From NCBI GenBank assembly GCA_000004695.1, contig CM000151.3:7424001-7488000 (forward strand): DNA of 64,000 nt, given 5' to 3'. A model generated the notes under the pieces. It searched no databases and was not told the origin of the DNA. It saw only the letters and a program-made list of their open reading frames with translations. The translations under genes were made by a program, and so were the position numbers. This DNA is from Dictyostelium discoideum. Lineage: Eukaryota. Positions 3,326 through 55,554 of the stretch are shown in pieces (position 1 is the first letter of the stretch; every line of letters starts with the position of its first letter).

Positions 3326-5478
3326 ATGGTATCAGCAACATCAACCAATATTTATCAAACAAATTTTTCAGACTTTGATTCAATTAAAAAATCAATTCAA
3401 TCTCAAGTGTAAGTATTTATTATTTATTTATTTTTAAAAAATAGAAATTTTTATTAATTTTTTTTTTAATTAATAATATAATAATAAAATAATAGACAAT
3501 ATTATTTTAGTGAAGAAAATTTACGTAGAGATATTCATCTTAGATGTAATATGGATGAAGAAGGATGGGTATCAATTCCATTTATTTGTGGATTTAATAG
3601 AATGAGATCATTTGAAAGTTCAACTGTTATTGAAACATTAAAATCATTAAATTCATTAGAATTGGATTTACAAAATAATAGAGTTAGAATATTGGATAAT
3701 AGTAAAAGAAAACTTTGGATTTTAACTCAAGAAATGAAAGATGGATTTTTAGTTGGTATTGAACAACAACAACAAGCTCAATCAAGTGAAGAATCTGGTT
3801 GGGTAACAGTAAAGTCTAAAAAACTTTATAAATTAGAGAATGGTTCTACTTCAAAAGATTCATTATCAAATTTATTGAATCAACATGAAAATGATACTGA
3901 AATCATTAAACAACACAAAACTGAAGAAGGTTTCTTTGATTTAAGTGGTGATGAAGATGATAAACAAGATTTTTTCATAAAAGAAAGAAGAAATTTCGAT
4001 TATAGAAATATTGAACAAGAACAACAAGATTTTGAAAATGAACAACAACAAGAAGATGAAGATGAAGATGATCAACAACAACAACAACAACAAATTGAAG
4101 AAGTTGAAGAGGAAGAACAATTGTTTGGTAGTTATTCTGAAAAATCTGAAGATAATTTTAATGATGATGATCAAGATTATGAAAATAGTGAAGAAGATGA
4201 TGATATTTCAAATAAATTAATCATTGTTACTCAATCACCATTCAGAAAGAATAAAATTAATAGTAAAAAGTATATTAATGCTGATTTGGCAAGTGCAATC
4301 AATGATGGTCTTTATTTCTATGAACAAGATTTAAAAAGAAATAAACAAACAAAATATCAACAATTTAATACTATCATTGTTGAAGAATCAAAACTTTCTA
4401 AGCAATCAATTCAACAAAAATCATCAACTCAACAACAACCACCACCATTACAAAAACAACAACAACCACAACCACAACCACAACCACAACCACAACCACA
4501 ACCACAAAAACAAAAATTACAACAACAACCATCAAATAAATTAAATGATTTGAAATCTCCAACTAGACTCTATTCACCAAAACCAAAGAATACAAGTGGT
4601 AATAAAGTTAATGATGGTAGTACTCCTATTGGTTGGGTTATGGCACCAAATTCTGAACCTCCATCACCAATTTCAAATAGTCCATTGAATGCATCACCAA
4701 ATTCTGTTTCAAATAATAAATCTATTGAAACTAAATCCTCTAATAGTAAACCAATAACTAATAGTAATAATAATAATAATAATAGTTATGCATCAATTGT
4801 TAATTCAAAATCTAATAGTAATAATAGTTTATTATCATCATCAATTAAGTCTAATAATTCATCAATTGATGGTAATGGTGATTTCGAAAAACAACCAAGT
4901 CCATTCCCATACTTTCAACATCCATCATATGAATTACTATCAGAGAATGGATTTGTTCAACATAAATACAACAAATATCGTAGTAAATGTATGAAAGATC
5001 GTGAACGTTTCGGTGTTGGTCAATCAATGGAAATGAATACCTTGTTTAGATTTTGGTCACATTTCCTTCGTTCTCATTTCAACATTAAAATGTATGAAGA
5101 GTTTAAGACCATCGCTTTAGAGGACGCAAAACAAAATTGGAGATATGGTTTAGAATGCCTTTTTAGATTCTATTCCTATGGTTTGGAAAAGAAAATCAAA
5201 TTACTCTTATTGAATGATTTCCAAACATTAACACTTCAAGATTTCAATGAACAAAAACAAATCTATGGTGTTGAAAAGTTTTGGGCTTTCCAAAAGTATG
5301 GTAAAGATAAATCTCCTTATGATTTAAATCCAGAATTAAAACAAATCCTCTCCAAATTTAATTCTGTCGAAGATTTCCGTACTTATGAAAGAGTTAATAA
5401 ACCAATTATCTCTTTAAATCAAATTAAAACTTCATCATCATTGATTTCATCATCACCAAAGGTATCATCATCTTTACC

Positions 5479-5510
<32 letters not shown>

Positions 5511-5758
5511 CCTCATCATCATCATCAAATCATAAATCATCATCACCATCATCATCATCATCATCATTTAGTTCCAACTCTCATTCTACCTCTTTTGGTA
5601 GTAGAAAAAAATCATTTGGTTCAAGTTCGACCACAATGGCTTGGAATACAAGATCAACCATTCAAACTACTCCACATCAATCAAGCAATACCAACAATGC
5701 TAGTGGAGTAGTTGGTTCTTCAAGTGCCAAGACATATTTTGTTAAAAATGGAATGTAA
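3326..5758 (+). CDS. LARP1-like La-related protein, two exons: join(3326..3408, 3511..5758). La motif at the N-terminus, DM15 repeats near the C-terminus.
   Basis: ATG at 3326. GTAAGT donor at 3409 and ...ttttag acceptor ending at 3510 keep the frame (..[37 protein letters not shown] = La motif). The C-terminal block [36 protein letters not shown] matches the DM15/LARP1 signature. Stop TAA at 5756-5758. Confidence 0.75.
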
Positions 5759-6262
5759 GGCTTTTCCAACCTCTTTCCAATCCACTTGGAAAGACTTGAG
5801 TTGGAATCAACAAAAACAACTAAATCTTGATAATATGACAACTAAAATGATGATAAACAAAACACAACCAAATACACACCACACCAAAGATGATACTAAA
5901 AACCAAAATACAAAAACTCACTACCACCAACACCACCAAAAAATAAAAAAAGAAGAAAAACAAAAAAAATATTTGTCTATAAAAATAAAAATAAAAATAA
6001 AAGTTCTGTTCAAAAAAAAAAAAAAAAAAAAACGTTAAAAATAAAATTGTCTTTGAATATTCCTACCTATTTTATTTGTTTCATACTAACACCATTTGTC
6101 ACATTTTAATCAACGAGTAAACGCCAAAAAACAACGGTTTTCTCTAATTATTTAACACTTTTGTTATTGGAAATCGATTCCCACCAACTCTGGAATATTC
6201 CAATTTTAAAAAAAAAATTAACCAAACATGGGTTTTGGCTAAATTTAAAAAAATTTCAAGAT

Positions 6263-6358
6263 GGGGATGTAGCTCATATGGTAGAGCGTATGGTTTGCAT
6301 AAACAGCAACGATAATCAGAGTTCCATAAGGTAAAGGGATCGATACCCTTCTTCTCCA
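6263..6358 (+). tRNA. tRNA-Ala(UGC), copy 1, with a putative ~23-nt intron 3' of anticodon position 37
   Basis: Cloverleaf parts: acceptor GGGGATG/CTTCTCC with a G3:U70 pair (alanine identity element); D arm GCTC-ATATGGTA-GAGC; anticodon stem TATGG/CCATA with loop TTTGCA + 23-nt insert + T; T arm AAGGG-ATCGATA-CCCTT; discriminator A; a T-run follows. The identical 96-nt sequence recurs inverted at 10539-10634. Confidence 0.65.
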
Positions 6359-6387
6359 AAATTTTCTTCATGAAAACGATTATCAAT

Positions 6388-6398
6388 GGTTCGATTCC
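6388..6398 (+). promoter_or_regulatory. External B box (ex-B) of the tRNA-Ala gene, a Pol III TFIIIC site characteristic of Dictyostelium tRNA genes
   Basis: GGTTCGATTCC lies 30 nt downstream of the tRNA 3' end. The same motif sits at the corresponding position of the inverted copy (about 10499-10509). Confidence 0.6.
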
Positions 6399-6399
6399 C

Positions 6400-9300
6400 T
6401 TAAAAGTGTCAATAACCTCACAAGAATCTTGGAAAGGAGACTAGACAGAATATACCTTAACAATAGCATAATCAACTACAGCCAATTATACTTAAGGAAC
6501 CTAATCCCCCCAAAAATTAATGACATACCTCTATCAGATCACAACTTCCTATCAACCACCTTCACTCTACCCAACATACAGATGAACAGGCGCAGATGGA
6601 GATTAAAAAAATCCTCAATCCTCTCAAGCATAATGCTTAAGAAAATAGACTTCCTACTTAACGATTATTCAAGGGAGCTGTCATCCAACCATAACTCTAT
6701 TTCCTTCTCTCAACTCAACAGCTTACTAAACAAAATAAAACAACTATACACAGAATTTCAAAAACAAAATGACTACAACAATAAGGCAAACATCAAAAAT
6801 CTAATCTCCCTACTAGAGACAGAATTTAAAGACCAAGCCTTCGCAACCCTTTCAGCAATAAATGAATCTAAAAAAAGAGAAGAACAACTTAAACAAGAAT
6901 TGAACAACTATTGCGAAGAAACCTCACTCAAGTACATCTCCGCGAGAATCAAGAAAAGACACAATGATTTCACCATCAACGCAGTAAAAGATGCACAAGG
7001 TAGAACAATCAACAAACAGGAATTGATCGAAGAAGAATACGTAAAATATTACTCAAATCTTTATGACTACAAAGAAGATGACGCACCATCTCATTATGAA
7101 ATGTTGGAAAATTGGACAGTGACCAGGGACTCAACATGGGACAACCTTGAAAATTGAATTTCACAACACAAGAGATCCTAGAAGGTATTAAAACAAATTG
7201 AACCCACACAAATCTCCAGGCCCAGATGGAATTCCAAACTTATTCTACATAACACACAAAGAAAAACTAGCTCCAATACTGGCCTCAGCATTCAACGACA
7301 CTTTAAGAAATCCTCATCTAATTAGCAAAAATTACAAAGAAGGCCTCATTATCACGATACCTAAAAAGGGAGACCCCGAACTAATCAAAAACAGAAGACC
7401 AATTACACTGGCTAACTGTATATATAAAATCCACTCAAAACTAATAAACAATAGAATAATCCCAATACTAACGAAAGTGATCAACCACAATCAAAAAGGT
7501 TTCGTACCAGGCAGATTCATTATAGATAATATCATATCAATGAACGAATTAATCAACTATTGTAATGATAAAAGAATTAACGGAATAATTACACTATATG
7601 ATTTCGAAAAAGCTTTTGACTCGATTTCACACGGTTCAATACTCAGATCACTACAACACATCAACATTCCAACCAATATAATCAACCTGATAATGAATCT
7701 ACTCACCAAATCTGAAGCAAGAATTGAAATTAATGGTAGAACTACTATACCCTTTGAGATCAAAAGAGGAGTCAAACAAGGAGATCCACTATCACCCACC
7801 CTGTTCGTCCTTGTAATAGAGGCTTTAGCTAGAAAAATTTTACAAGATGACCGAATTACTGGCCTTCCTCTAAACAACAGCAACCACAGAGAGAAATTCC
7901 AAAGCTTTGCAGACGACTCGGCTTCAATGGTCCCAGACTCTCAACAACTTGAATTAGTACTACAACACTTCAATTCATTTTGCAAAGCCACTTCCTCAAA
8001 ACTAAACATCGACAAATCTTCATCAATTCTTATAGGCAACCCAGACAATACCAACCAAAGAATACCAATATCTACAAATCCAGAAAGATACTTGGGATAC
8101 TTCTTCACAGGCAAAGGGATAACAAGAAAAATGCCAGAAATATTAAACACAATAAGATCATCCTTAGTACTATGGAAAACCACTGACTCAACAATCAAAA
8201 CCAAAACCAACATCCTCAAAGCATTCGCACTCTCTAAATTAACCTACTATTCATATGTAGAGAACTTTAAGGAAGAGGAATTAAACCAAATCAATAAATT
8301 GGTCGAATGGTTTTTATCGGCACCTAACAACAAAAATGCTAGTGGATTTCAAGTTATTAATTTAATGAGAACCAAAAGAGCAAGATACCCACTAAATGTA
8401 GGGGGCTGGAACATTTGGAATATAGAATTGAGACAACTGGCGCAGAAACTTTGGATCATAAACCAGTTCATCCTAGCACTAGAAACCAAACAAACAAACT
8501 CATCTCATCACAAAAGCTGGGAATATCAGATCCAAAAAAACAAATTCACATCCAGATACCTAAAAGAAAACTTAGACGAATGGAACAAAATAAGAATAAA
8601 AAAAGCAATCTTCAACAATAATCTCACATCCATAAAAAACGAAAATGGACGACCACTTTCACTGGCAGAATGGTATACCACAATTCAAGACCAAAATCCA
8701 ACCATCCCTAAAACGGAATTCCAATCATCTCTAAACTTAAGAGGCTACAGCTATAATCAACTCTTCAACAACATACTGAAGATAAAAGACCCTAAAACAA
8801 GAGACACAATGTTTAGATTCCATGCCAGATGCCTTCCAATAAACTACCTTCACAACAAACAATGCCCACTCTGCAAAGAAGATATGAGCAAAGACCCATA
8901 CGGTCACCTGTTCTTCTCATGCAAGAAAACAAAACAATTCATAAAAATAAATAAACTCAAAAATTTCATCTATATTACCACAGGCAAAGGTAAAAACTGG
9001 CACCATACAAGAATTAGGCAAAATAACAATTTCATTAATAGAATAACTCCAAAATTATCACCGATAGCCAAAAAAGATCAAGAAGTGAATGCAGATTACG
9101 CCAACCTCAGATTCCACAAAGAATACTTTGAATGGAACTATAAAGCAATAGACTATGATCTAACTAGATCATTCGCATATAGAAACCTAATGGCCCTTAT
9201 CCTCCACAACATTTGGATTTGGATTTGCAATCAAATATACAGTGAAGATCCTTTAACAGATGAATCACTATCATACAGCTCCCTTCTAAAGAAATGGCAC

Positions 9301-9589
9301 AAATTGGCCACTCTAGAATACATCAAAAAAGCAAAAGATCTGAAAAACTTATCAGCAAAAGACCATAATAACTTCAAAGATCCTAAGATCCTTCTCACTT
9401 CAACGATCAAGCTAAGAAAAACAACAGCTAATTACTATTGTATTCCAGAATCATCTCTCCCAAATATTATATCTTTTGATCAATTCATATGATTAAAATA
9501 ACCCTTCAGCTTAAATGATAAGCCTATAAATAAATATTAAATAAAACTCGTATTAACACAGATGGACATATATCAATCTTGTTAATCTA

Positions 9590-9623
<34 letters not shown>
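6400..9623 (+). mobile_element. TRE3-type tRNA-gene-targeted non-LTR retrotransposon, 5'-truncated. It starts inside the APE domain of ORF2, has a frameshift between the APE end and the RT, and ends in a 3'UTR plus oligo(A).
   Basis: ORF 6429..7157 carries the endonuclease C-terminal motifs (..DRIY..PLSDHNFL). ORF 7198..9492 is a reverse transcriptase (SPGPDGIPNLFY.., ..QGDPLSPTLF.., FADD) plus a C-terminal Cys/His finger (CPLCKEDMSKDPYGHLFFSC). The insertion is immediately 3' of a tRNA gene and its ex-B box, same orientation as the tRNA. Poly(A) runs 9595-9623. Confidence 0.8.
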
Positions 9624-9625
<2 letters not shown>

Positions 9626-10538
9626 AAACTCAACCTTATAAATTGAAAAACTTAACTTAACTGTATCCTCTCAAGTTGAGTGGCGATTGAAATTCAGTCT
9701 TTGAAATGTTTGTGTATGTTTTGTGAATTTCGTCATACTATTCCGCTAATGATCATCCAAAGTTTCTGAAAATGTAGAAACCATGTAAAAAGTAGTCCTG
9801 TTTGAATTTGGAGTTGACTGTTTTTTTAAATATCAGCTGGTATTTTAAATTTAGAATAAAATAAATTCATCAAACGATATTAAATTTGGCAGCATTGATT
9901 CTGGAATTTTATTAGACCAGTGTTTTTCCATTAAACAATAATTAAATGTTTAATTATATTAATTTTAATTTTAAAATAAAAGGAATTTTTATAATTATTA
10001 TTTATTCATTTTAATTATTTTTTTTTTTTTAATGTACTAAATGGATAAATAAAATATTGAAATTGTAGTTAATGAAATAAATTGTTTCAAGAATACTATT
10101 TGGGAGACCCAGATTCTGCAACACAATAAGCTTTGCAAGTTAATTTTCTTAATATATTTTATTAAGGAAATAGTTTGGATCTTTAAAATTGCTTGGATGT
10201 TTTGAAATAGATAGTTTTAAATTGTTTGAATTTTATATATTCATGAGTGTTTATTTTTTTATCCTTTTGTTAAGGAGAGTTCGATATGAAATTATTCATC
10301 TCTAAATGGTCATTCAATATACAGTTGGTTGCAATTCCAAACTCATTTGATATGAATTATTAAGGCCATTATGTTTAATATGAGGTTCGGGATAGGTCAT
10401 AGTTAACAATTTTTTACCCTATTCCGAGTATTCTTTGTGGAATCTAAGATCCTATGGTAACTCATGACCTTATCGATTAAATTCAATCTAATAAATGGAG
10501 AATCGAACCATTGATCACCGTTTTCAGGACAAAAATTT

Positions 10539-10634
10539 TGGAGAAGAAGGGTATCGATCCCTTTACCTTATGGAACTCTGATTATCGTTGCTGTTTATGC
10601 AAACCATACGCTCTACCATATGAGCTACATCCCC
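10539..10634 (-). tRNA. tRNA-Ala(UGC), copy 2, 96 nt identical to copy 1, inverted orientation
   Basis: Exact reverse complement of 6263-6358, with an ex-B-like GGTTCGATTCTCC at about 10497-10510 on the minus strand. Confidence 0.65.
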
Positions 10635-10699
10635 ATCTTGAAATATTTTTAAAATTAGCCAAAAACCATCTTTAGTAAATTTTTTTTTAAAATAAGCCA

Positions 10700-10850
10700 A
10701 AAACGAATTATTCCAGAGTTGGTGGTCGATCTCCAATAACAAAAGTGTTAAATAATTAGAGAAAACCGTTGTTTTTTGGCGTTCCAATACCAAAATTGTT
10801 AAATAATTAGAGAAAACCGTTGTTTTTTTTGCTTGTTCTATTGTGGGTAT
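10700..10850. repeat. Tandem duplication (~55 bp x 2) in the conserved 5' flank of tRNA-Ala copy 2
   Basis: ...gttaaataattagagaaaaccgttgtttttt... occurs twice. The single-copy version is present upstream of copy 1 at about 6120-6180. Confidence 0.7.
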
Positions 10851-11511
10851 CGTATTGATGTGGGTTTGATTTTTTGTCCCAGACCAATAGTATGGCCCCT
10901 GTCTCCTCCCCAAGTAAAAGTGATATAAGCTATTCATATTAAATTTTTATTTGTTTTTTATAATATTTAGTGAGTTTTAAATAAAAAGATTTTAAATTAT
11001 AAAAATAGATTAAATTATTAAATTATAAAATTAAGATTTAAATTAATATGACAAAAGTTATTAAAAATAAATATACGATTAAATCTTTTTTTTTTTTGAA
11101 TTGGATAACGCAATTATTATTTGCTTCTCCTTGAGATGCTAGATCTCATTTTATTTTATTTTTTTTTTTTTTACAGGGTCTCTAAAAGAGGGGTTAGTTT
11201 ACTTTTTTTTTTTTTTTTTTTTTTTTGTTTCGAATTTTGAATTGTATTATTACTTTTGATTAAAACATCTTTTTTGTCCAAACTTTTTTCTAAATCTTTT
11301 TTTATTTTATCGTCTGGTTCGTGATTGATGTTTATGACGTATTTGAATTGTTTTTTTTTTAATTGAGTTTTATCCACAATTTCGCTTATTTTTTGTAGGC
11401 ATTTGTGTTGCTTAATATTTGTGGTGTTGTTTGTGATTTTCATTTTATTTTCCTTCTATTTTTTTTATTTTTAAAAATCTGGAAATTTTCTGATTAACTT
11501 GGGGTTCCCAG

Positions 11512-11554
<43 letters not shown>

Positions 11555-11670
11555 TCTTTTTTATATGAAAAATGAAATAATCAAAAAAAGAGATTGTTGT
11601 TGTTTGTTTTTTTTTCGATCTATACGATTAAATCTAAAACGTAGCTAAATAATTTGGAAAATATCGATTA

Positions 11671-11743
11671 GTTCGGATGGTGTAGTCGGTTATCACGAAT
11701 CCTTAACACGGATTAGGTCGTGGGTTCGATTCCCGCTCTGAAT
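11671..11743 (+). tRNA. tRNA-Val(AAC)
   Basis: Acceptor GTTCGGA/TCTGAAT; D arm GTGT-AGTCGGTTA-TCAC; anticodon arm AATCC-TTAACAC-GGATT (anticodon AAC); T arm GTGGG-TTCGATT-CCCGC; discriminator A; T-run downstream. Confidence 0.8.
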
Positions 11744-11749
11744 ACTCTT

Positions 11750-13461
11750 TTATGAAAAAGTAAAGTGTCGTGGGTTTTTAGTTTTGAGGTTGATGGCATA
11801 CCAAAAACGATAGTAGAATTAATAATGAATCTATTAAAAGAAACAACGAATAAGATCAAGATAAATGACTTCCTGGTGGGACACATTACAGTTAACAGAG
11901 GCACAAAACAAGGAGATCCATTATCACCAACAATATTTGCACTTGTAATGGAAGCACTACTAATTGATATACTTAAAGAAATCGAAATTAAAGGATTTAA
12001 ATTATCAGACCAGAAAAGAATCAAGCTAACAGCATTCGCAGATGATATGTCAACTTTCAACAACTCAGCAGAAGAATTAAAATTAGTATTGGATAAAATC
12101 AACAACTACTGTCTAGGTACATCTTCAAAACTTAATCAAGAGAAAACTGTTATGATATGCATTGGTAATATACCACCAAACCTCCCATTTAAGATTAGTG
12201 AAGCTCCAGAAAGATACTTGGGTCTCAATTTCACGAAAGTGGGCCTCAATTCAAAAATCACATCAATCATCAACTCAATCAAAGATAGCTTAAACAATTG
12301 GAAAAGTCAAGCAACTACAATAAGAGCAAAGATGACAATTGTCAAAACATATGCGCTATCGAGATTATCCTACCATCAATATCTAGACTCACTAAATGAA
12401 TCACACATTACTGAACTAAACAATATCATTAAATGGTTCCTCTTCTCCGCAATTAAAAATACATACACAGAAGAACATAAATATAGAACATTAATGACAA
12501 TGGATAGAGCATACGGTGATTGGAAAGAAGGTGGAATTAAGATGTGGGACTTAGGTATCAGACAAATAGCATTCAAAGTTTGGAACATGAATAGATTATT
12601 ACACATTATCAAGATAAAAGCATGCAACATACTACAAGAATGGTATATGGAACAAATCAGCAACAGCAAATATATATCAATTGGATTAAGAGAGATGGTA
12701 GACAGATGGAAAGATTTTAGAAACAACTTTGCACCACAACACAATAAACTAAAATCACTACCTGATTGTATCAAAGGTCAAAACAAAAAGCCACTTCAAC
12801 TTAAAGAAATCTATAACATGTTAATCACTCACAAATACAAATCAATAAGAAAAACAGATGGACAAAAAAATCTAATTTCAATAAATAACATCAACATACC
12901 ATCCATCTTCCAACATATCAACCACATATCACATCAAAAAGGTAGAAATACACTATTCAGATTTTTCTCAAGGTCACTTCCTGGAATCAACTATGAACGT
13001 AACGTACCATGCAAAATCTGTAACAATATAATCCGTGACCCATACACTCACCTTTTTATAGACTGTATGCAAGTAAAAGAAATAGAAAACATAATAATTT
13101 CAACATTCAACAATCTCTCATTCTTCAAGATCAGAAATTGGGATCTCAATTCACTAGATATTAGCAAAACAAATAAAAAAGAAAGAATCTACCCAAATTT
13201 AATCGGCATAATTATACATCAACTATGGAGAATAATTTGTCACAAACTATTCAATCAAGACGAATCTAAAACTCCACCCTCATTTGATCCAACATTAATT
13301 GAAAAAGAACTAACCAACTTAATTAAAATAGAGAAATTCATTTTAATAAAGAAGATTGAAAGGAATGAAACAATATACAAATTAAATAACAGAGACCAAT
13401 TAATAATCAACTTCAACACATCATGGCATAACCCGAACACTCCAAACCCAATTCCACTATA

Positions 13462-13500
<39 letters not shown>

Positions 13501-13637
13501 AAGTAGTAGTAATCATAATATAACCAAAAATATCAACATATAACAATATAAAAATTTAAAAATTTAAAAATCTAAAAATTTAAAAATGTAATAAAATATA
13601 ACAATACACCGCTTTTAGGTAAAAAAAAAAAAAAAAA
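11750..13637 (+). mobile_element. TRE3-type retrotransposon, copy 2, 5'-truncated within the RT, inserted about 10-20 bp 3' of tRNA-Val
   Basis: ORF 11765..13462 carries RT motifs (..KQGDPLSPTIFALVMEAL.., FADDM) and the C-terminal Cys/His finger. Stop, A-tract, ~110 bp 3'UTR and terminal oligo(A) end at 13637. Confidence 0.75.
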
Positions 13638-14267
13638 AGTTTTGAGGTTGATTAATTCATTGATGTTGATGATGTCGGTGAGATACAACACAGCAATACC
13701 CAAAGTATTCATAAACATCAACAGCATTTCTCACCAAAAAGGTAGAAACACCCTCTTCAGATTCTTCTCAAGATCACTTCCAGGTATCAACCACGAAAGA
13801 GACACCAGATGCAAGATCTGTGGCCACCTATTCAGAGACCCTTATTCTCACCTCTTCACTCTATGCCAAGATATCCTTGATATTGAAAAAACCATCATAT
13901 CAACAGTTAACAAATTATCATTCATCAAAATCCACAGATGGTCAATGGATACCTTAGACATATCAAAATACAACAGAACTGAGAGAATCTTCCCCAATCT
14001 CATAGGAATAATAGCACACCAATTATGGAAGATAATCTGTCACAAATTGTTCAACACTGATGAAAGCAAACCAGAGCCAAAATTCGAACAAAAGGTCATA
14101 GAAACAGAATTACTAAATCTCATCGAAACTGAAAAATTCATCACACTAAAGAAAATCAAACACGACGAAGCAATACTAAAAAACACCAATCAAGATCTTC
14201 ACAAATACAAATTCAACAAAGCCTGGCAAACCCCAGCAGCTCCGAACCCTCTTCCAATTTAAGTAGT

Positions 14268-14326
<59 letters not shown>

Positions 14327-14457
14327 TATAATATAGTTTAAAAAATTTAATACAATTGAATAATAAAAATAAAACCGTTTAACAAACACAGCCGAAAAGA
14401 CACAAGGACATTCCTTGAAGGTCTGATCACAGGTAAAAAAAAAAAAAAAAAATTGAT
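13638..14457 (+). mobile_element. TRE3 fragment 3 (C-terminal ORF2 plus 3'UTR), abutting copy 2 head-to-tail
   Basis: ORF 13642..14262 is homologous to 12900-13462 (ISHQKGRNTLFRFFSRSLPGIN...CKIC...DPY.HLF). A-tract, UTR and oligo(A) run to 14457. It starts with the same 13-mer gttttgaggttga as copy 2. Confidence 0.7.
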
Positions 14458-14499
14458 GTTGATGATGTTGTCTATGATGAATCTGTGGGGTACGAAACC

Positions 14500-15340
14500 A
14501 GTTTGGTTGTTGTTGATGATGAAAGGAAGTATTCTCAGAAGACGTGCATTTATTACTTTTGAGGATCTTGTAATCAGTGTTTAGAAGTGTGATGGGACGA
14601 CGATTTGATATGAGTAAGGGGTTGCCTTTCTTATATATTGTGTGTATAAGACCTTCGGTGAATTCTGTTGTGATGTGGTGAGGGTTTTCTAGTATATCGT
14701 TGAATAATGTAGTGAGAATTGGTTTAACTTGGTTTAAATGATTAATGTAGAATGTATTTGTAACGCCACCTGGACGGGGTGATTTGTTGGAGTTACAGGT
14801 TTTAATTGCAGCTTCAACTTCATCTTGTATAAATGGTGAGTCTAAACCATTCCAATAATCATTTTTAATGATGGGCCATGTGTTTAGCATGTATTGGTGA
14901 GTAATTGGACAACATATTTGTAAGGTATATAGATTTGTGTAGAATTCAACAAACGCATTTTCAATTTGGTCGGGGTCGGATGTAATGATGTTACCATATT
15001 GGATTGATTCAATTTTTGCATCTTTTGATCTTTTGTTTAGTATTGCTGATAGATACTTGCTAGGTATTTCTCCATTTATATGTTTTTTTAATATGTTTGT
15101 GTGGTTTTGATGTAGTTTGTTTTTGTTACATATAATATTGTATTCAGGGATGCATTGTCCTTCAAGATGTTTGAATTTTGCTGCTTTTTCTAATAGTATT
15201 TGTTTTGCACGTTGAGTTTGTTTGTCTTTGTTATATTGATAGTTTTTTAGAGTTTTAATAATTTTAGATTTTACTTTTGACCAATTTGTAAATTGATTGA
15301 TTGATGTGTTATTGTGATAATATTCCACTACCACCAACAC
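14500..15340 (-). mobile_element. TRE3 fragment in inverted orientation (APE end and N-terminal RT region)
   Basis: Minus-strand ORF 14213..15340. Its real part (about 14540-15340) reads ..KSPRPGGVTNTFYINHL..NPHHIT..RRPITLLNTDYKILK, parallel to copy 1 residues SPGPDGIPNLFY..NRRPITLANCIYKIHS. The 3' portion of the listed ORF is junk read through neighbouring A/T tracts. Confidence 0.6.
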
Positions 15341-15479
15341 TCAAAGAAATCTACTCGACAATACTCAACAATCACAATGTAAATCAAAGACTATAAAGGC
15401 AAGAAATATACAGATCTACTCCTTCGCACCAACAATCAATACAACTATTATGGAAATACACATGCACCAACTATTTGTC

Positions 15480-15855
15480 AAAATTCAAAAATTAAAAGAT
15501 CCATAAGGCCGTGATACAATGCAAAGATTCCATGCTAGATGTCTTCCAATTAATCATCTACACAACAAAGTTTGCCCCATTTGCAACAATGAAATGAATA
15601 ATGATCCCTATGGCCATTTGTTTTTCAATTGTCAGTACACAATCAATTTCATAAACCATGACAAATTAAAATATTTTATATATAAAAATTGCAATGGAAA
15701 CAAAAACTGGTCATTAACAAAAAACAAAACAACAAAATTATCAAATTTTAGAGTATTAATTTATATAAAAAAAACTTTTGTTTTAAAAGTCGATTATTAA
15801 AAAAAAAAAAAAACATAAATGATTATACCTTGGAAAAAAAAAAAATAAAAAAAAG
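15480..15855 (+). mobile_element. TRE3 3' terminal fragment (Cys/His finger, UTR, oligo-A)
   Basis: ORF 15519..15800: FHARCLPINHLHNKVCPICNNEMNNDPYGHLFFNC, homologous to the ORF2 C-terminus of copy 1, followed by A-rich tails. Confidence 0.6.
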
Positions 15856-15873
15856 ATGTACAAATCTATGGTT

Positions 15874-18800
15874 TTATTTTAAAGTGGAGGGGAAATAATT
15901 TGTTCTTTGATTGGTAACAACGGCAATCAAATTTTCATTGACACCTGATGTGGATTTTGAAATTGCACAAGTTAAGAAATGACAAAATTTACATTTAAAT
16001 AAATTCCAATCATTGTTTTGTTGTATGTTTTGATTTTGCTGTTGTTGTTGTTGTTGCTTTGATTTACTATTATTTGAATTATTATTATTATTATTATTAA
16101 TATTATTACTGTTATTATTATAAACAATTTCAATTGAAGATCTTTCATAATCACCAACAACATTAATAATATTAGTATAACCCCAAGCTAAATAATTTAA
16201 ATTATTATATCCATGAAGTTTTTTCATATCACCTAAAAAGTTTGAACAACCGATTATATGATTTGGACAATCCAAATCAGAGCCAGGAGTGCAACAACAT
16301 TTTTTTGGGTTTGAGTATTTTCTATTATCGAATGGAGTTAACAAAGTGAAAGAACAAGCACCACAAAGACATTGAAAAAGGGTTGAATTTGTTTCACCAC
16401 CTCCCCATTCAGAGAGACCTTTAAAGTTTCTTCTTTGTTTACCCCAACGACAAAGTTGTTCAACGAAACCAGTATTTGGAGAGATAATGTAACGACAATC
16501 TCTAACGAGAATGAATGCTTCAAAATAACTAATGGAACGTGAATCCATAAAGTAACCAATTGCCAAGGCAGATGAACGAGAAACACCTTTATCAGAGCAA
16601 ATTAAAACTTTACCATGATGAACGATAGCATCACGAATGAAATCAAAAGCCAATGATAATGATTGAGTGATATCTTGATGAGGTTGGTCATGAAGTTGTA
16701 AATGAAGATACTCGAAATGGTCTGGGAAAGCATTTGGAGAACCAGTGCAATTGATAATATGAGTGATTTGATATTCATTGATTAACATGTTTTTATTCAT
16801 TGAGGGATTAAAAGAGGAGATATACATAAACGAGGCAACTTTTGATGGTCTATCCATATAGAAACGATGTTCAGGAAACTCTGCAGCTTCATAGGGCATT
16901 TCCAAAGTTGATTTATCTCCATCTACCATTAGACTACCCACTTTGATTGGATTATTAGCATTGTAACTATGTGGCAAGAAACGACCTGGAGTATAGTGAC
17001 CAGTGAATTTAATACTCTTTGCCTTATAGCTTGTACCATCACCACCATTATAGTATTGTTTTGGTTTCTCGACGGTATTCATTTGATTTGACATATGACC
17101 ATCTAATTTCTTTTTCAATTGTTCCCATTGTGATAGGATGGTTGGTTTAATTGCAATGAATTTAGTTAACAAATCTCTTAGAGTTGGACGATAGAAAGGA
17201 TCACGAATGAATACATAATCCAAATAATCTAAAATGGCAGGAATATTTGCAACCTTTGATTTTCTTTCGGGTGTAATAAGTTCTTGACCAGGTTGAGTGA
17301 CACGAATAAAGAATTTAACCCAATCATCGTCGTAAAAGAGAAAATCACCAGTTAACAATTCATAGAAAAGACAACCCAATGACCAAACATCACTTGCAGT
17401 ATTTGAACCAACTTTTTTACGTCTATCAAAATTTTCACGAGTCTTTTGAGAAGCGTATGCAATTGTGAGCATTTCTGGTGATTTTATAAACTCGGTACCA
17501 CGATTTCTAGTTGTATAACCTTCTACGTCTTGAGTGTAAACTTTAGCTTCACCCCAATCGGCTAAACAAACTGCAAAGTTTGGATCATTGGTTGGTTGAT
17601 TCCAAAAGTCCTCTTCTATGGTACCTTTTTTCAATGGATGTACCAAAAAGTTATCACATTTAATATCGAAATGATTGATTTTATGATCACCTAAAAATTG
17701 AACACTTTGAAGTACATTGGTAAATATATTTAAAAGTAGTGGTAATAATTCTAAAAATGGTAAAGTTTGTTTTAATCTCCACTCTTTTAGACTACATTTA
17801 TAAGATTTCATTACTATCCAATAGTTTTCACCATCGACACCATAATCAAACATATGACAACCTCTTGAATCACTTCTAAATGTATCCATAATTAAAATCT
17901 CTGTGAAAATATCATAAAGTACACAACGGTCATGAATTGTTTTTGGAACAGGCATTAGTTTTACAGCGATTTCCAAACCTTCATCATTACCCAATGTACC
18001 TTTGTACACTGTACCATAGGCACCCTTTGCAACACGTTTTAAATCTTTAAAAAGATTGGAATGATATAGTCTACTAAAGAGTAACTTTAAAATTCTAAAA
18101 TGATTTGGACCCATTTCATGAGTTCTCTTTGTTAACTCTGGTATGATCTTCTCATTATCTTGATGATTAATATGTAAATGAAGAATGAAAGGTACATTCA
18201 ATTTCTTTGCAACAATTGGGAATTGATCGGAATAAAGATGTTCAAGAGTTTGGTTTGAATTTAATAATAAACTGAAAATTAATTGAAGTAATGAAATATG
18301 TAAATCCCTATCATGATAGAGTTTACGATTATTTCTCTCCAATTGATAACGTTGATTTTCATTGAAAATTTCATTTTCTGTTGGTTCAATCATTTGTTCA
18401 CTATCACGATCAGATGGTGTTAACGATTGTGATGGATTATCCAATACCAATTGAAATTTAGGATCTTGTGGATCAATCTTTTGTTCAATTGATGATAATA
18501 CACCAGTACCAGCTTGTTTAGTATCTTCTTCTGATCTAATTTTAATTGCTGGTAATACTAATTTTGGTATTAAAATTGGTGGTTTTGAACTTGAAATATT
18601 AATTGGACTATTTGATAATTTTGGTAAATTTATTTCATTGTTGTTGGAAGCAATAGTATTATTACTATTATTTATTGGTGGTGGTGTTGTTGTAGTTGTT
18701 GTTGTTGTTGTTGAACCTCCTTTACTTATTGATCCTAAATTTAATGATTTAATTATTGGTTTTGATATTGGTTGGTTTGGTTGTGATGGTGGTACAGTTT

Positions 18801-19761
18801 CAGTTGATGATGAACTTTTACTTAATGATGATAAATTTAAAGAAAATTGTGGTTTTCCTGTTGGTGTTGTAGTAGTTGTTGTTGTTGTTGAGTTGCTATT
18901 GTTAGTGGTTGTTGGAATATTTTTTAAATTTAAAAGATTTGGTGTTGAAGTTGATGCTTGTCCAGTTTTACTAACTGATGATAAGTTCAATGAGAATTTT
19001 GGTTTGGGTGGAGCAGGTAATGGTGGTTCTGTGGAAACAGATCCTATAGTTGTAGTTGTAGTTGATGTTGATGTTGATGATGTAGAATCTATTATTGTTG
19101 AGGCTGGAACTGTTGTAAGTGATGTTGTAGTTGAATTTGATGATGATGATGATGATGATATAGTTGTTGTAGTTAAATTTGATGATGAAGTTGAAGCTGG
19201 AGAACCTTTACTTATAGATGATAAATTCAAAGAGAATTTTGGTTTAATTAGAGGATTTGAAGAAACTCCTGTAGTTGGTGGAGTAGATGCCAAAGTTGAT
19301 GGAGTGGATATCAAAGTTGATGGTGATGATGTTGAAGAACCACTATCAATTTTAGGTTGAAGTGATAATTTTGGAATTACAGGAGGTGAACTTGTATTAT
19401 TGTTGTTACTACTATTGTCGGTTTTAGTGATTCCACTTAAATTTAAACCAAGATTTAATTTTGTACCTGGTGTAGCTAATTTAGGAATGGTAGGTGGACC
19501 ACCAGTTTTAATTGGTGTTGTAGAATTTGTGTTTGTAGTTGTAGTTGTTTTAGTTGTAGTAGTAGTTGTTGTTGTTGTTGTTGTTGATAATGATAATGAA
19601 GATGAAGTTGAGGAAGAGGATGATGTATCATCTGAACTATTTGCAAAAAATGGAATTGATGATAATGGTTTTAAAAATTGATCTTTATTTTGTTTTATTT
19701 CATATTCCAAATTAACTTCTCTAACTAAGAAATCCATTGTTCTTAATTGATAAAATTTCAT
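15874..19761 (-). CDS. Large protein (1295 aa) with an N-terminal S/T/P-rich mucin-like region, a eukaryotic protein kinase domain, a dual-specificity-phosphatase-like domain, and a C-terminal Cys-rich, poly-N/Q tail
   Basis: ATG at 19761. Kinase motifs: glycine loop AKGAYGTVYKG, lysine IAVKLM, catalytic HFDIKCDNFLV, DWG (in place of DFG), SPE. Phosphatase-like P-loop VHHGKVLICSDKGVSRSSA, which is C-x6-R rather than the canonical C-x5-R. Confidence 0.75.
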   Translation of the reverse strand: MKFYQLRTMDFLVREVNLEYEIKQNKDQFLKPLSSIPFFANSSDDTSSSSSTSSSLSLSTTTTTTTTTTTKTTTTTNTNSTTPIKTGGPPTIPKLATPGTKLNLGLNLSGITKTDNSSNNNNTSSPPVIPKLSLQPKIDSGSSTSSPSTLISTPSTLASTPPTTGVSSNPLIKPKFSLNLSSISKGSPASTSSSNLTTTTISSSSSSSNSTTTSLTTVPASTIIDSTSSTSTSTTTTTIGSVSTEPPLPAPPKPKFSLNLSSVSKTGQASTSTPNLLNLKNIPTTTNNSNSTTTTTTTTPTGKPQFSLNLSSLSKSSSSTETVPPSQPNQPISKPIIKSLNLGSISKGGSTTTTTTTTTPPPINNSNNTIASNNNEINLPKLSNSPINISSSKPPILIPKLVLPAIKIRSEEDTKQAGTGVLSSIEQKIDPQDPKFQLVLDNPSQSLTPSDRDSEQMIEPTENEIFNENQRYQLERNNRKLYHDRDLHISLLQLIFSLLLNSNQTLEHLYSDQFPIVAKKLNVPFILHLHINHQDNEKIIPELTKRTHEMGPNHFRILKLLFSRLYHSNLFKDLKRVAKGAYGTVYKGTLGNDEGLEIAVKLMPVPKTIHDRCVLYDIFTEILIMDTFRSDSRGCHMFDYGVDGENYWIVMKSYKCSLKEWRLKQTLPFLELLPLLLNIFTNVLQSVQFLGDHKINHFDIKCDNFLVHPLKKGTIEEDFWNQPTNDPNFAVCLADWGEAKVYTQDVEGYTTRNRGTEFIKSPEMLTIAYASQKTRENFDRRKKVGSNTASDVWSLGCLFYELLTGDFLFYDDDWVKFFIRVTQPGQELITPERKSKVANIPAILDYLDYVFIRDPFYRPTLRDLLTKFIAIKPTILSQWEQLKKKLDGHMSNQMNTVEKPKQYYNGGDGTSYKAKSIKFTGHYTPGRFLPHSYNANNPIKVGSLMVDGDKSTLEMPYEAAEFPEHRFYMDRPSKVASFMYISSFNPSMNKNMLINEYQITHIINCTGSPNAFPDHFEYLHLQLHDQPHQDITQSLSLAFDFIRDAIVHHGKVLICSDKGVSRSSALAIGYFMDSRSISYFEAFILVRDCRYIISPNTGFVEQLCRWGKQRRNFKGLSEWGGGETNSTLFQCLCGACSFTLLTPFDNRKYSNPKKCCCTPGSDLDCPNHIIGCSNFLGDMKKLHGYNNLNYLAWGYTNIINVVGDYERSSIEIVYNNNSNNINNNNNNNSNNSKSKQQQQQQQNQNIQQNNDWNLFKCKFCHFLTCAISKSTSGVNENLIAVVTNQRTNYFPSTLK

Positions 19762-49727: not shown

Positions 49728-49801
49728 GGGACTATAGTTTAGTTGGATATAACGACCGGCTACGAACCGGTAGGTCTCAGGTTCGACCCCTGATGGTCTC
49801 G
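49728..49801 (+). tRNA. tRNA-Arg(ACG)
   Basis: Acceptor GGGACTA/TGGTCTC (two G-U pairs); D arm; anticodon arm ACCGG-CTACGAA-CCGGT (anticodon ACG); T arm TCAGG-TTCGACC-CCTGA; discriminator G; followed by T7 (Pol III terminator); ex-B-like GGTTCAATTCC at 49832-49842. Confidence 0.8.
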
Positions 49802-51959: not shown

Positions 51960-52600
51960 TTAAAAATTGTAATTGGAGAATTTTTTTTGATTAAATCTGA
52001 AACTGATTGGGTTTTTAACCAAAGCTCAAAAAAAAAAAAAACCAATTGGTTTTAAAAATTATTAAGATTGAATCTCAAAAAATTTATTTTTGTATTCTTC
52101 TTTCAAATTAAAAAAATGGTTTAATAAATGAAAAGAATTAAAAAAAAGAATTGTTTTTTTCATTATACAAATTAAAAAATAAAATAAAATTAAAATTAAA
52201 ATAATTTTTTGGTTTTTTAAAATCAATGAGGTTGTGAGCTTCACTTATTATTAGAACTTTTTTGTAATTTAAATTTAATTCAAAAAAATAAATAAAAAAA
52301 AAATTTAAATTACAAAATATTTCACCAAACCCCCAAAAAAAATAAAAAAAATTATGATAATTTTAATTTTAATTTTTTCACACCTCAAAATTTTATTAAG
52401 GCATTGTTATTGGAAAATGAAACATTACCAATAAAATCCTTTTTTGATCTGGGAGTTTAATTTGTAATTTGGTAATTTTCATTTTTTTTTTTTTTTTTTT
52501 TTTTTTTTGTGTGGTTAATAATGGGGAAATAAGTTTTGAGGTGTGAAAAAATTAAAAACAATCAAGAAGGTAAAAAACAAAAAAAAACAAAATCAAAATA
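51960..52600. repeat. Copy 1 of a ~0.6-kb dispersed, locally duplicated block (the partner is at 54830-55400)
   Basis: Collinear matching segments: 51990-52060 / 54990-55060 (..attggttttaaaaat..); 52195-52260 / 54838-54905 (..tttttggttt..aatcaatg.ggttgt.agcttca..); 52395-52590 / 55165-55385 (..gcattgttattg.aa..gaaacatta.caata.aatccttttttgat.tgggagtttaatttgtaatttggtaatt..T-run..gtgtggtta.taatg..agttttgaggtgtgaaaaa..aaggtaaaaaacaaaaaaaaa..). Confidence 0.75.
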
Positions 52601-52649
52601 AACAAAATTAATATTTAATATCTTTATCTTTAATTAATCCCATGAATTT

Positions 52650-54940: not shown

Positions 54941-55255
54941 TATTTTATCAAACCCTTTAAAAAATATTTTATTGATTAATACCCCCTTGTTAATGATTTT
55001 AAAAAAAAAAATCAAATTGGTTTTAAAAATATTTTTTTGAACATTTTTTTTAATTAAATTCAAACCCCAAAAAATGAATTAAAAAAAAAAAATAATATCT
55101 CAAATTAAATTTTTTTTTTTTTATTTTTAAAAAGGTTTTGTTTGAGATTATTTTATGATTATAAATTAAAGAATGCATTGTTATTGAATAATTATGAAAC
55201 ATTATCAATATAATCCTTTTTTGATTTGGGAGTTTAATTTGTAATTTGGTAATTT

Positions 55256-55287
<32 letters not shown>

Positions 55288-55400
55288 CAGTGTGGTTATT
55301 AATGTAGGAAAACAGTTTTGAGGTGTGAAAAACAGTTTTGAAGTGAGATTAAATTTATAATAATCCTTGAAGGTAAAAAACAAAAAAAAAAAAAAAACAT
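54830..55400. repeat. Copy 2 of the ~0.6-kb duplicated block (see 51960-52600)
   Basis: See the paired segments listed for copy 1. The two copies lie in direct orientation on either side of the esterase gene. Confidence 0.75.
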
Positions 55401-55554
55401 ATCAAAAAAGTCAAAATTAAAAAACCAATAAAAAAATTGAAACCTAAGTTAAATTATATTAATTATTATTATTTTTATTTATTTATTTAAGAAATACAAT
55501 AAATTGATTAAGAATTTGAAAAATCTAAAGGTACTTCTTCAGTATTACATTGAG

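Follow-up and report, generated by a model that had tools for sequence, protein, structure and literature searches.

What built the crowded array of retrotransposon fragments that lies beside a group of tRNA genes in Dictyostelium discoideum, and do the short motifs repeated at its junctions point to an unusual way of joining elements? The array occupies a 9.8-kb intergenic spacer (6040-15870) of the 64,000-nucleotide stretch analysed here (the window) and is flanked by a LARP1-like and a kinase/phosphatase gene. The spacer contains three tRNA genes, two convergent tRNA-Ala(UGC) genes and one tRNA-Val(AAC) gene. The intron-bearing tRNA-Ala gene #1 (6263-6358, plus strand) and its inverted copy, tRNA-Ala gene #2 (10539-10634, minus strand), were both detected with Rfam (RF00005; 49.1 bits each), but neither with ARAGORN; the TGC anticodon and the G3:U70 pair of gene #1 can be read directly from the sequence. 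The surroundings of the two genes (6120-6397 versus 10783-10500) are 90% identical. The tRNA-Val gene (11671-11745, plus strand) was found by both ARAGORN and Rfam (57.9 bits). An external B box (ggttcgattcc) can be read downstream of tRNA-Ala gene #1 at 6388-6398 on the plus strand, and it is conserved, equally far from the gene, in D. citrinum, D. dimigraforme and D. firmibasis.

The initial annotation described TRE3-type non-LTR retrotransposons at these tRNA genes, partly nested and with one inverted piece, and this description is borne out: none of the elements aligns best to TRE5 or to an LTR family, and the full ORF2s of the three lineages that have references score 487-674 bits among themselves versus 290-371 bits to the TRE5-A cluster. 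The elements fall into four TRE3 lineages, F1 to F4, and we infer the names: F1 is probably TRE3-A, F2 TRE3-B, F3 TRE3-C and F4 TRE3-D. At the amino acid level, copy 1 (F1) and copy 2 (F3) are 33% identical, copy 2 and fragment 3 (F4) are 61% identical, and the F2 pieces are 96% identical to P0010. Because the fragments belong to different lineages, they represent separate insertions. Independent copies of each lineage lie 50-63 bp 3' of tRNA genes: the F2 reference in L002 at 63 bp, with a 12-bp duplication, the F3 reference in L005 at 60 bp, and an F4 copy of D. citrinum about 50 bp 3' of tRNA-Ala; F1 in L001 stands in a tandem and has a duplication of about 10 bp. The 5'-truncated elements of our locus are likewise confirmed to lie in the orientation of the tRNA, 48-72 bp 3' of the tRNA genes.

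Copy 1 (6410-9623, plus strand) is a 5'-truncated F1 element, 98.7% identical in nucleotides to a full-length element (L001 4102-7308) and 99% identical in amino acids to P0001. It had been placed at 6400-9623; the element is real, but it starts at 6410, 51 bp after tRNA-Ala gene #1, and it ends in A29. The proposed ORF2 frameshift is also real: alignment to an intact copy reveals a patch at 7155-7199 with four 1-nt insertions (7155, 7161, 7185 and 7199; net +1) and about six substitutions. That copy 1 is non-autonomous is correct but trivial, since in any case neither ORF1 nor the greater part of the endonuclease domain is present. No target-site duplication was found for copy 1, the flanks of which share no k-mer longer than 6. 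On its 3' side copy 1 adjoins an internally cut older fragment, M2, which implies that target DNA was deleted or that the site was rearranged later.

Downstream of tRNA-Val, copy 2 and fragment 3 follow each other head to tail. Copy 2 is a 5'-truncated F3 element located at 11794-13638 on the plus strand, rather than at 11750-13637 as first drawn, and starts 48 bp after tRNA-Val. It is 99.2% identical in nucleotides to L005 5761-7597, 99.6% identical in amino acids to P0015 (residues 545-1099) and 100% identical to DDB_G0276981. Fragment 3, initially given as 13638-14457, is a 777-bp F4 3' end at 13676-14452 on the plus strand. It shares 61% of amino acids with P0015 (residues 909-1099), and 94.6% of nucleotides and 97.7% of amino acids with the D. 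citrinum copy 3' of tRNA-Ala. The terminal signature ascribed to every fragment (ORF2 stop, A-tract, UTR of about 100 bp and oligo(A)) holds for these two only: copy 2 has an internal A36, a 121-nt UTR and A18, and fragment 3 an internal A52, a 112-nt UTR and A18, while copy 1 ends with the stop, a 102-nt UTR and A29, the internal A-tract being absent.

Both insertions lie within an older F2 element, which is preserved in four pieces. Three are antisense (minus strand): piece a (11773-11793), recovered by reconstruction and including the left 13-bp duplication of copy 2; piece b (13639-13675), matching L002 6846 to 6806 and made up of the right 13-bp duplication of copy 2, 8 nt and the left 16-bp duplication of fragment 3; and piece c (14453-15318), which is 97.2% identical to L002 6822 to 5954 and 96% identical in amino acids to P0010 (residues 274-525). 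The inverted RT fragment previously placed at 14500-15340 is inverted indeed, but starts and ends elsewhere, includes the two small pieces, and consists mostly of the APE-RT linker with the start of the RT (about residues 274-573; the RT domain spans 502-732). When copy 2 and fragment 3 are deleted together with one repeat each, the F2 antisense sequence is restored: the reconstruction aligns for 137 nt, with a 3-nt gap and two mismatches as the only differences, and follows L002 antisense continuously from 6853. Positions 13638-13675 and 14452-15318 form a single contiguous antisense stretch of a full-length F2 element (L002 6846 to 5954), with L002 6806-6822 represented twice. The fourth piece is in sense orientation (15317-15741, plus strand), covers the ORF2 zinc-finger region, is 95.1% identical to L002 8035-8466 and meets piece c at a sharp junction with a 2-nt microhomology. 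The initial annotation had this terminal fragment at 15480-15855 with a complete 3' end; a sense fragment does exist, but it lacks the ORF2 stop, the UTR and poly(A), since family homology ends at 15741, about 620 bp before the family poly(A). A 48-nt filler follows (15742-15789); its only match, 16 nt with 94% identity to L002 9056-9071, is not significant, and the filler may contain what is left of the F2 3' terminus, with A8.

The F2 composite begins 28 bp after tRNA-Val and interrupts the external B box of this gene. The left half of the box (gtcgtgggtt; 11767-11776, plus strand), recognized from the intact orthologous boxes of D. citrinum (gtcgcgcgttcgattctcg) and D. firmibasis (atcgtgggttcgaatctcg), overlaps the start of the F2 antisense sequence with its last 4 nt (ggtt). 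The right half (tcgatt) opens the ancestral flank (15790-15873, plus strand), which continues into the 3' region of the kinase gene; flank comparison matches 15799-16288 to D. citrinum L003 21915-22404. In D. citrinum only 218 bp separate tRNA-Val from the kinase stop codon, and hence the site downstream of tRNA-Val is empty there. Comparison of the flanks detected no target-site duplication around the composite.

How the composite arose can be read in two ways. The first, which we consider to have a little less than an even chance, is twin priming within one integration: the top-strand 3' end in the B box (…gggtt) would have primed internally on F2 RNA while first-strand cDNA was made from the 3' end, the 3' terminus being lost afterwards or missing from the donor to begin with. 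The segments have the geometry that this predicts: beside the left flank lies an antisense 5'-ward segment (L002 6853 to 5954), and behind it, oriented like the tRNA, a sense 3'-ward segment that belongs to the same lineage; microhomology is present at the left junction (4 nt) as well as at the inversion junction, and both segments diverge similarly from one reference. However, twin priming does not explain the missing duplication and poly(A), the premature end of the sense piece, the 1.18-kb gap between the segments or the filler, and it has no report for TREs in the searchable literature. The second, the probability of which we also place just under one half, invokes either inversion and deletions after a normal insertion or an endonuclease-independent event in which pieces of TRE3 cDNA were captured where the chromosome had broken in the B box. 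Break-repair-type L1 insertions typically lack a duplication and poly(A), are truncated at both ends and contain filler DNA and an inversion, all of which is seen here. The locus is also prone to rearrangement between species: in D. citrinum and D. firmibasis, tRNA-Ala #2 and tRNA-Val are oriented differently. Yet several independent events would be required, and the block sits exactly between gggtt and cgatt of the B box; such placement without loss of flank suggests a single integration event.

Against this older element the repeated motifs can be explained. The 13-mer gttttgaggttga occurs exactly at 11781-11793 and 13639-13651 and nowhere else; its last base directly precedes copy 2, and the second occurrence begins at the first base after the A18 of copy 2. 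The 16-mer ttgatgttgatgatgt is placed in the same exact manner before the 5' end of fragment 3 (13660-13675) and after its oligo(A) (14453-14468, the second position having been reported as 14461), and is found once more in a coding repeat at 19068. The 13-mer is not the beginning of copy 2 and fragment 3, as had been assumed, but adjoins copy 2 externally on both sides. Both motifs are internal antisense sequence of F2, so the reservation that the 13-mer might simply be internal element sequence was justified, except that the element in question is the target and not the inserted ones. The 13-mer and the 16-mer are ordinary target-site duplications of copy 2 (13 bp) and fragment 3 (16 bp), which the suggested search at the junctions was meant to detect. 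It is very unlikely that they instead reflect a preferred cDNA 5' end, template switching or microhomology-mediated 5' joining. Although both motifs do stand at 5' junctions, and microhomology is frequent at the 5' junctions of L1-clade elements, each flanks one element on both sides, both form part of uninterrupted antisense sequence inside the older F2 element, and the F3 copy in L005 and the F4 copy of D. citrinum are truncated elsewhere without them. The head-to-tail order, and the fact that copy 2 and fragment 3 both end in a stop, a long A-tract, a UTR and oligo(A), might suggest that one element was multiplied by tandem duplication or by unequal recombination. This is extremely improbable, because the two share only 69% of nucleotides, have different target-site duplications and find their nearer relatives elsewhere (L005 and D. 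citrinum, respectively).

Taken together, the locus is very probably an ordinary D. discoideum tRNA-gene landing pad, shaped by repeated TRE3 insertion, with the motifs being duplications of the two youngest insertions. All three tRNA genes would have been targeted repeatedly, by TRE3 lineages downstream and by a TRE5-type element upstream. Integration of TRE3 presumably proceeds by target-primed reverse transcription, which is established for L1-clade elements. The site would depend on how far it lies from the Pol III transcription complex and not on local DNA sequence, so that each newcomer would land closer to the tRNA gene than its predecessor, or inside this predecessor, and displace it outward. 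At tRNA-Val, the F2 composite would have split the external B box first; the F4 3' end would then have entered the F2 antisense sequence 72 bp after the gene, and finally the 1.85-kb F3 copy would have inserted at 48 bp, 24 bp further in. We infer that fragment 3 preceded copy 2 from the known targeting window of 14-305 bp rather than from direct observation. Identities to the references (95-97% for F2, 99.2% for copy 2) fit the proposed order. Since duplications are missing at copy 1 and at the F2 composite, not all junctions are textbook products of target-primed reverse transcription.

Between copy 1 and tRNA-Val lie further remnants that the initial annotation had overlooked. The five or more fragments it counted exist, but the number was too low, as at least three more TRE3-type fragments occupy the minus strand at 9624-10499. 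M2 (9624-9752, minus strand), identified with tblastn, is an internal ORF2 fragment of an F1-related TRE3 (59% to P0001 residues 783-819, 77% to P0008; translation SLAEWY...TEFQSPLNLRGYS); M2 is cut off on its 3' side where the poly(A) of copy 1 ends. M1b (about 9753-10017, minus strand) was delimited from nucleotide matches and translation as a very short degenerate TRE3 3' end comprising the last ~20 ORF2 codons (translation IPESMLPNLISFDEFILF and stop) and UTR; its 9855-9907 segment matches the ORF2 end of copy 1 at 79%. M1a (10018-10499, minus strand) is a degenerate 5'-truncated TRE3-type fragment, about 70% identical in nucleotides to the F1 ORF2 C-terminus, that starts 39 bp 3' of tRNA-Ala gene #2 and ends in A13 (T-run 10018-10030); in L001 a fragment of the M1a lineage lies in tandem behind an F1 element. 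Upstream of tRNA-Val, with its 5' end toward the gene, is a TRE5-type remnant (approximately 11079-11646, minus strand) composed of 5'-UTR modules (83-88% to 198-bp 5' modules, which are repeated upstream of the tRNA in L002), an ORF1 N-terminal remnant, for which the match is weak, and a 3'-UTR-like piece (82-86% to a P0032-family element in L001, in its 3' UTR region).

The elements resemble the D. discoideum TRE3 group (TRE3-A to -D), L1-clade non-LTR retrotransposons with an APE-RT-zinc-finger ORF2. TRE3 insertions described in the literature lie 40-150 bp downstream of tRNA genes (range 14-305 bp) in the orientation of the tRNA, and sequential targeting that yields TRE tandems is already known (Spaller 2016), with several elements per tRNA gene (PMC5006619, PMC5911963). 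There is no essential difference from this system, apart from copy 1 and the F2 composite lacking duplications and one element being an inverted/direct composite. Copy 1 is similar to TRE5-A integrations with target-site deletions (PMC3159450) in that it is 5'-truncated, has no duplication and adjoins a truncated older element, and by this analogy its features would be the expected outcome of integration with loss of target DNA. Those deletions accompany 5'-truncated TRE5-A insertions upstream of tRNA genes, whereas copy 1 is a TRE3. L1 5' inversions, attributed to twin priming by Ostertag and Kazazian (2001), combine, like the F2 composite, an inverted 5'-ward with a direct 3'-ward segment from one element, and likewise have junction microhomology and the inverted part beside the upstream flank; the match is incomplete, as the composite has no duplication or poly(A), a 1.18-kb gap and a truncated 3' end. 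In yeast, Ty3 and Ty1 clusters consist of LTR elements inserted upstream of the tRNA gene in an integrase-dependent manner, whereas the elements studied here are non-LTR, would use target-primed reverse transcription and insert downstream. In both systems, Pol III-transcribed genes serve as recurrent safe-haven targets surrounded by nested retroelement remnants.

Positions 6040-15870 form a spacer that separates a LARP1-like host gene (3551-5758, plus strand) from a kinase/dual-specificity-phosphatase gene (15874-19761, minus strand); three tRNA genes are contained in it. The intron-containing tRNA-Ala(UGC) gene is present twice, as tRNA-Ala #1 (6263-6358, plus strand) and as an inverted copy, tRNA-Ala #2 (10634-10539, minus strand), the two having 278 bp in common at 90% identity. 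The third gene is tRNA-Val(AAC) (11671-11745, plus strand). Rfam detected all three, and ARAGORN only tRNA-Val. About 30 bp after each tRNA-Ala gene there is an external B box, ggttcgattc[ct]. A piece of the tRNA-Ala upstream flank of ~47 bp (corresponding to 6126-6172) occurs as a tandem duplicate beside tRNA-Ala #2 (10736-10828). The window is AT-rich, and the ORFs of its retroelements share 99-100% identity with D. discoideum proteins; DDB_G0276981 (AX4 chromosome 2) exactly matches 11825-13459. The ORF at 3551-5758 was also considered as a possible retroelement upstream of tRNA-Ala, but it corresponds to the LARP1-like host gene. Searches for homologues of the kinase ORF and of the LARP protein retrieved orthologues from other dictyostelids but no D. 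discoideum protein, an absence that reflects a database gap rather than biology. Elsewhere in the window there are a tRNA-Arg gene (49728-49801) and a pair of direct repeats (52398-52611 and 55172-55420) that are 78% identical.

The initial annotation considered this spacer to be a landing pad for TRE3 retrotransposons at tRNA genes, and the analysis confirms this reading. Using tblastn with D. discoideum relatives and DNA alignment to full-length copies from another D. discoideum assembly, we resolved four lineages with reference copies, F1-F4. Copy 1 (6410-9623, plus strand) belongs to F1, is 98.7% identical to positions 4102-7308 of the D. discoideum reference locus L001, and has its 5′ end ~2.05 kb into the ~5.23-kb F1 element. 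Copy 2 (11794-13638, plus strand) belongs to F3, with 99.6% amino acid identity to its protein relative P0015 from residue 545 and 99.2% nucleotide identity to the reference locus L005 (5761-7597). Fragment 3 (13676-14452, plus strand) represents F4; it shares just 61% amino acid identity with F3, but is 94.6% identical at the nucleotide level to a D. citrinum copy located ~50 bp downstream of a tRNA-Ala gene. The remaining two pieces form an F2 composite, with one part (14452-15318, minus strand) antisense to the reference locus L002 (6822->5954, 97.2%) and the 'terminal' part (15317-15741, plus strand) in sense orientation to L002 8035-8466 (95.1%). The former, previously described as an inverted RT fragment, is indeed inverted, but covers ORF2 residues ~274-573, chiefly the APE-RT linker, and reaches only ~70 residues into the RT domain (502-732). 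The fragment array proposed earlier is largely real, but its boundaries need correcting, as does the supposed signature of ORF2 stop, A-tract, UTR and oligo(A). A tail and a target-site duplication are found together in copy 2 and fragment 3, where the tail is A18 in both cases and the duplication measures 13 bp and 16 bp, respectively. An A29 tail but no duplication is seen for copy 1, and the F2 composite has neither.

The domain content of the fragments and their full-length relatives fits TRE3. RVT_1 was detected in copies 1 and 2, Exo_endo_phos together with RVT_1 in full-length F2 and F3 relatives, and a Cys/His motif (CP[IL]C...H...C) in both copies, in fragment 3 and in the sense part of F2, giving the order APE, RT, zinc finger of a non-LTR ORF2 that is one of the characters by which TRE3 is recognized. 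In ORF2 comparisons F1 and F2 score 674 bits against each other and F3 scores 473-487 bits against F1 and F2, while scores against the cluster containing DDB_G0269056, and against the relative of that cluster, P0032, range from 290 to 371 bits. That cluster is identified as TRE5-A because dictyBase names DDB_G0269056 'TRE5-A ORF2' (PMC12405889). Judged by sequence similarity, the full ORF2s of F1, F2 and F3 cluster with each other and apart from TRE5-A, and TRE5 is not the best match of the RT fragments. GenBank AAD43057, annotated as 'pol', is a member of the F2 cluster. The length of F1 without its tail (5222-5233 bp; published length of TRE3-A, 5229 bp, PMC5006619) and its abundance (it is the most abundant lineage and the largest cluster) tentatively suggest that F1 is TRE3-A. 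By elimination, F2, F3 and F4 may correspond to TRE3-B, TRE3-C and TRE3-D, respectively; for F4, as for TRE3-D, nothing but short 3′ ends is known, and the F2 length of ~4980 bp fits every published subfamily length poorly.

The two repeated motifs at tRNA-Val, previously taken as a hint of a preferred 5′ end, template switching or microhomology-mediated joining, find their explanation in the older F2 sequence that surrounds them. The 13-mer gttttgaggttga occurs exactly twice in the 64 kb: one occurrence stops at the last base preceding copy 2, and the other begins at the first base past its A18. The 16-mer ttgatgttgatgatgt flanks fragment 3 on both sides in the same manner. Positions 13638-13675 map to L002 6846->6806 and positions 14452-15318 to L002 6822->5954; since these F2 stretches overlap, L002 6806-6822 is present twice. 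Once copy 2 and fragment 3 are taken out, each along with one of its two flanking repeats, the reconstructed sequence (11773-11793 + 13652-13675 + 14469-...) forms an unbroken alignment to F2 antisense in which 137 nt contain two mismatches and a single gap of 3 nt. An allele lacking copy 2 would be predicted to read ...ggtttttagttttgaggttgattaattcattg..., with a single 13-mer. Neither motif is found in another F3 copy (L005) or in an F4 copy of D. citrinum, which have different truncation points, and reference copies have duplications of their own (12 bp for F2, ~10 bp for F1). The flanking position of the motifs and the continuity of F2 show that both are ordinary target-site duplications of nested insertions, which refutes the three mechanisms put forward initially.

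The nesting also bears on the order of events. F2 is the earliest element, because the other two interrupt it. Fragment 3 would have integrated second, 72 bp after tRNA-Val, and copy 2 third, 48 bp after the gene and 24 bp closer in; we infer this order because the reverse one would place fragment 3 ~1.9 kb from the gene, beyond the TRE3 window. Identities to reference copies agree with it (95-97% for F2, 99.2% for copy 2). Tandem arrangements are also present in other loci, namely, F1-F1 together with an M1a-type fragment (see below) in L001, and two F4-like 3′ ends behind tRNA-Ala in D. dimigraforme.

For a comparison between species we used the corresponding locus in D. citrinum, D. dimigraforme and D. 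firmibasis. In D. citrinum the gene order is kept (LARP, tRNA-Ala, ..., tRNA-Val, kinase), and only 218 bp separate tRNA-Val from the kinase stop codon, which indicates that the whole 4-kb array was inserted in the D. discoideum lineage. The second tRNA-Ala and tRNA-Val vary in position and orientation among the sister species (L003 13209-21768 in D. citrinum, L006 12913-20537 in D. firmibasis, and L004 in D. dimigraforme): both are on the plus strand in D. citrinum, and tRNA-Val is on the minus strand in D. firmibasis. These orientation differences point to inversions at the locus. The interval between the two tRNA-Ala genes of D. citrinum is occupied by another type of element with two ORFs (1202 and 451 aa, minus strand). 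In D. firmibasis, a poly(A)-tailed insertion of ~350 bp (L006 13081-13455) bounded by the duplication ctcatcgac lies about 90 bp downstream of tRNA-Ala and holds two tRNA-like or SINE-like repeats (…gtagtggttc…gaatcac…).

On the tRNA-Ala side, the A29 of copy 1 adjoins M2 (9752->9624, minus strand). M2 derives from the interior of the ORF2 of an F1-related element and is missing all sequence 3′ of about residue 830; its 3′ cut coincides exactly with the end of the copy 1 poly(A). In the direction of tRNA-Ala #2, M2 is followed by M1b, consisting of the last ~20 codons and UTR, and by M1a, which is ~480 bp long, has an A13 and starts 39 bp after tRNA-Ala #2, both on the minus strand. Since all three lie downstream of tRNA-Ala #2, this gene has its own head-to-tail array of degenerate TRE3-type fragments (9624-10499, minus strand), which the initial annotation missed. 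Positions 10119-10218, considered as a TRE5 3′ end, belong instead to the ORF2 C-terminus of the M1a lineage. Searches for target-site duplications of copy 1, M1a and the F2 composite returned only chance 6-mers. On the simplest reading, copy 1, when it inserted downstream of tRNA-Ala #1, would have hit the distal end of the opposing array, and target DNA would have been lost. Target-site deletions of this kind are documented at 5′-truncated TRE5-A integrations (PMC3159450). The frameshift reported for copy 1 is real and maps to a 45-bp patch (7155-7199) in which four single-nucleotide insertions accompany about six substitutions; outside the patch copy 1 differs by ~1% from the intact copy. 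Possible causes of the patch are local mutation, a conversion tract or poor sequence quality.

The pad also carries a TRE5-type remnant upstream of tRNA-Val (11079-11646, minus strand), in the expected opposite orientation, with its 5′ end toward the gene. This assignment is based on three matches: positions 11470-11646 are 83-88% identical to the 198-bp 5′ modules that recur in a TRE5-type element facing a tRNA gene in L002, positions 11079-11230 match the 3′ UTR region that this family has in L001, and a 90-aa ORF (11443->11171) weakly resembles the ORF1 of this family (N-terminal remnant). A 36-nt T-run lies within the remnant at about 11515-11550.

The F2 composite can be read in more than one way. 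Its antisense piece begins at 11773, 28 bp after tRNA-Val, and its first four bases (ggtt) overlap the first half of the external B box, gtcgtgggtt, which is intact at the orthologous position in D. citrinum (gtcgcgcgttcgattctcg) and D. firmibasis (atcgtgggttcgaatctcg). The antisense piece extends to L002 5954; there, with a 2-nt overlap, the sense piece takes over at L002 ~8035. Homology of the latter ends at 15741 (L002 8466), ~620 bp short of the family poly(A), and is followed by a 48-nt filler, then by tcgattatt..., apparently the other half of this B box, and then by the conserved flank. The F2 block is therefore located between gggtt and cgatt. A search of its flanks revealed no shared k-mer longer than 6, and no tail follows L002 8466. 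A diverged duplication of ~28 bp at the right flank was rejected, its divergence being too great for an element of this age, and a 375-aa ORF (14213-15340, minus strand) is not a gene but a chance frame running from F2 antisense into the antisense of the fragment 3 UTR and A-tract. An inverted upstream and a direct downstream segment with junction microhomologies make up the pattern of L1-type twin priming, which the composite fits. However, a composite of that kind would be bounded by a target-site duplication and end in poly(A), and the absence of both, the 1.18-kb internal gap and the filler are accommodated equally well by break-repair capture or later rearrangement. A search of the accessible literature yielded no paper connecting twin priming with Dictyostelium TREs. 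It is possible, if on balance doubtful, that the composite represents a twin-priming (or break-repair) TRE3 integration precisely within the tRNA-Val external B box and the first documented L1-style 5′ inversion in a tRNA-targeted amoeba retrotransposon. If this were true, later TRE3 copies would still have targeted a gene whose external B box was destroyed, and the internal B box would be sufficient.

Mildly unusual features are limited to two elements without a duplication, namely, copy 1 and the F2 composite, the latter of which also interrupts the external B box. To our knowledge, experimental work on non-canonical integration outcomes concerns TRE5-A only, and these two sets of junctions provide small leads on such outcomes for TRE3. 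The significance of the locus beyond annotation is small. It does offer a clean textbook case in which the spacing to the tRNA gene (48 and 72 bp), and not the target sequence, governs TRE3 integration, with the interrupted older F2 element usable as an internal ruler, and illustrates how tandem and nested arrays grow in a gene-dense genome. The landing-pad phenomenon itself is already described for D. discoideum. In the orientation of the respective tRNA gene, copy 1 is inserted at +51 from tRNA-Ala #1, M1a at +39 from tRNA-Ala #2, and copy 2 at +48 and fragment 3 at +72 (before the arrival of copy 2) from tRNA-Val, and independent copies are found at +63 (F2), +60 (F3) and ~+50 (F4 in D. citrinum). 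[quoted passage not shown]
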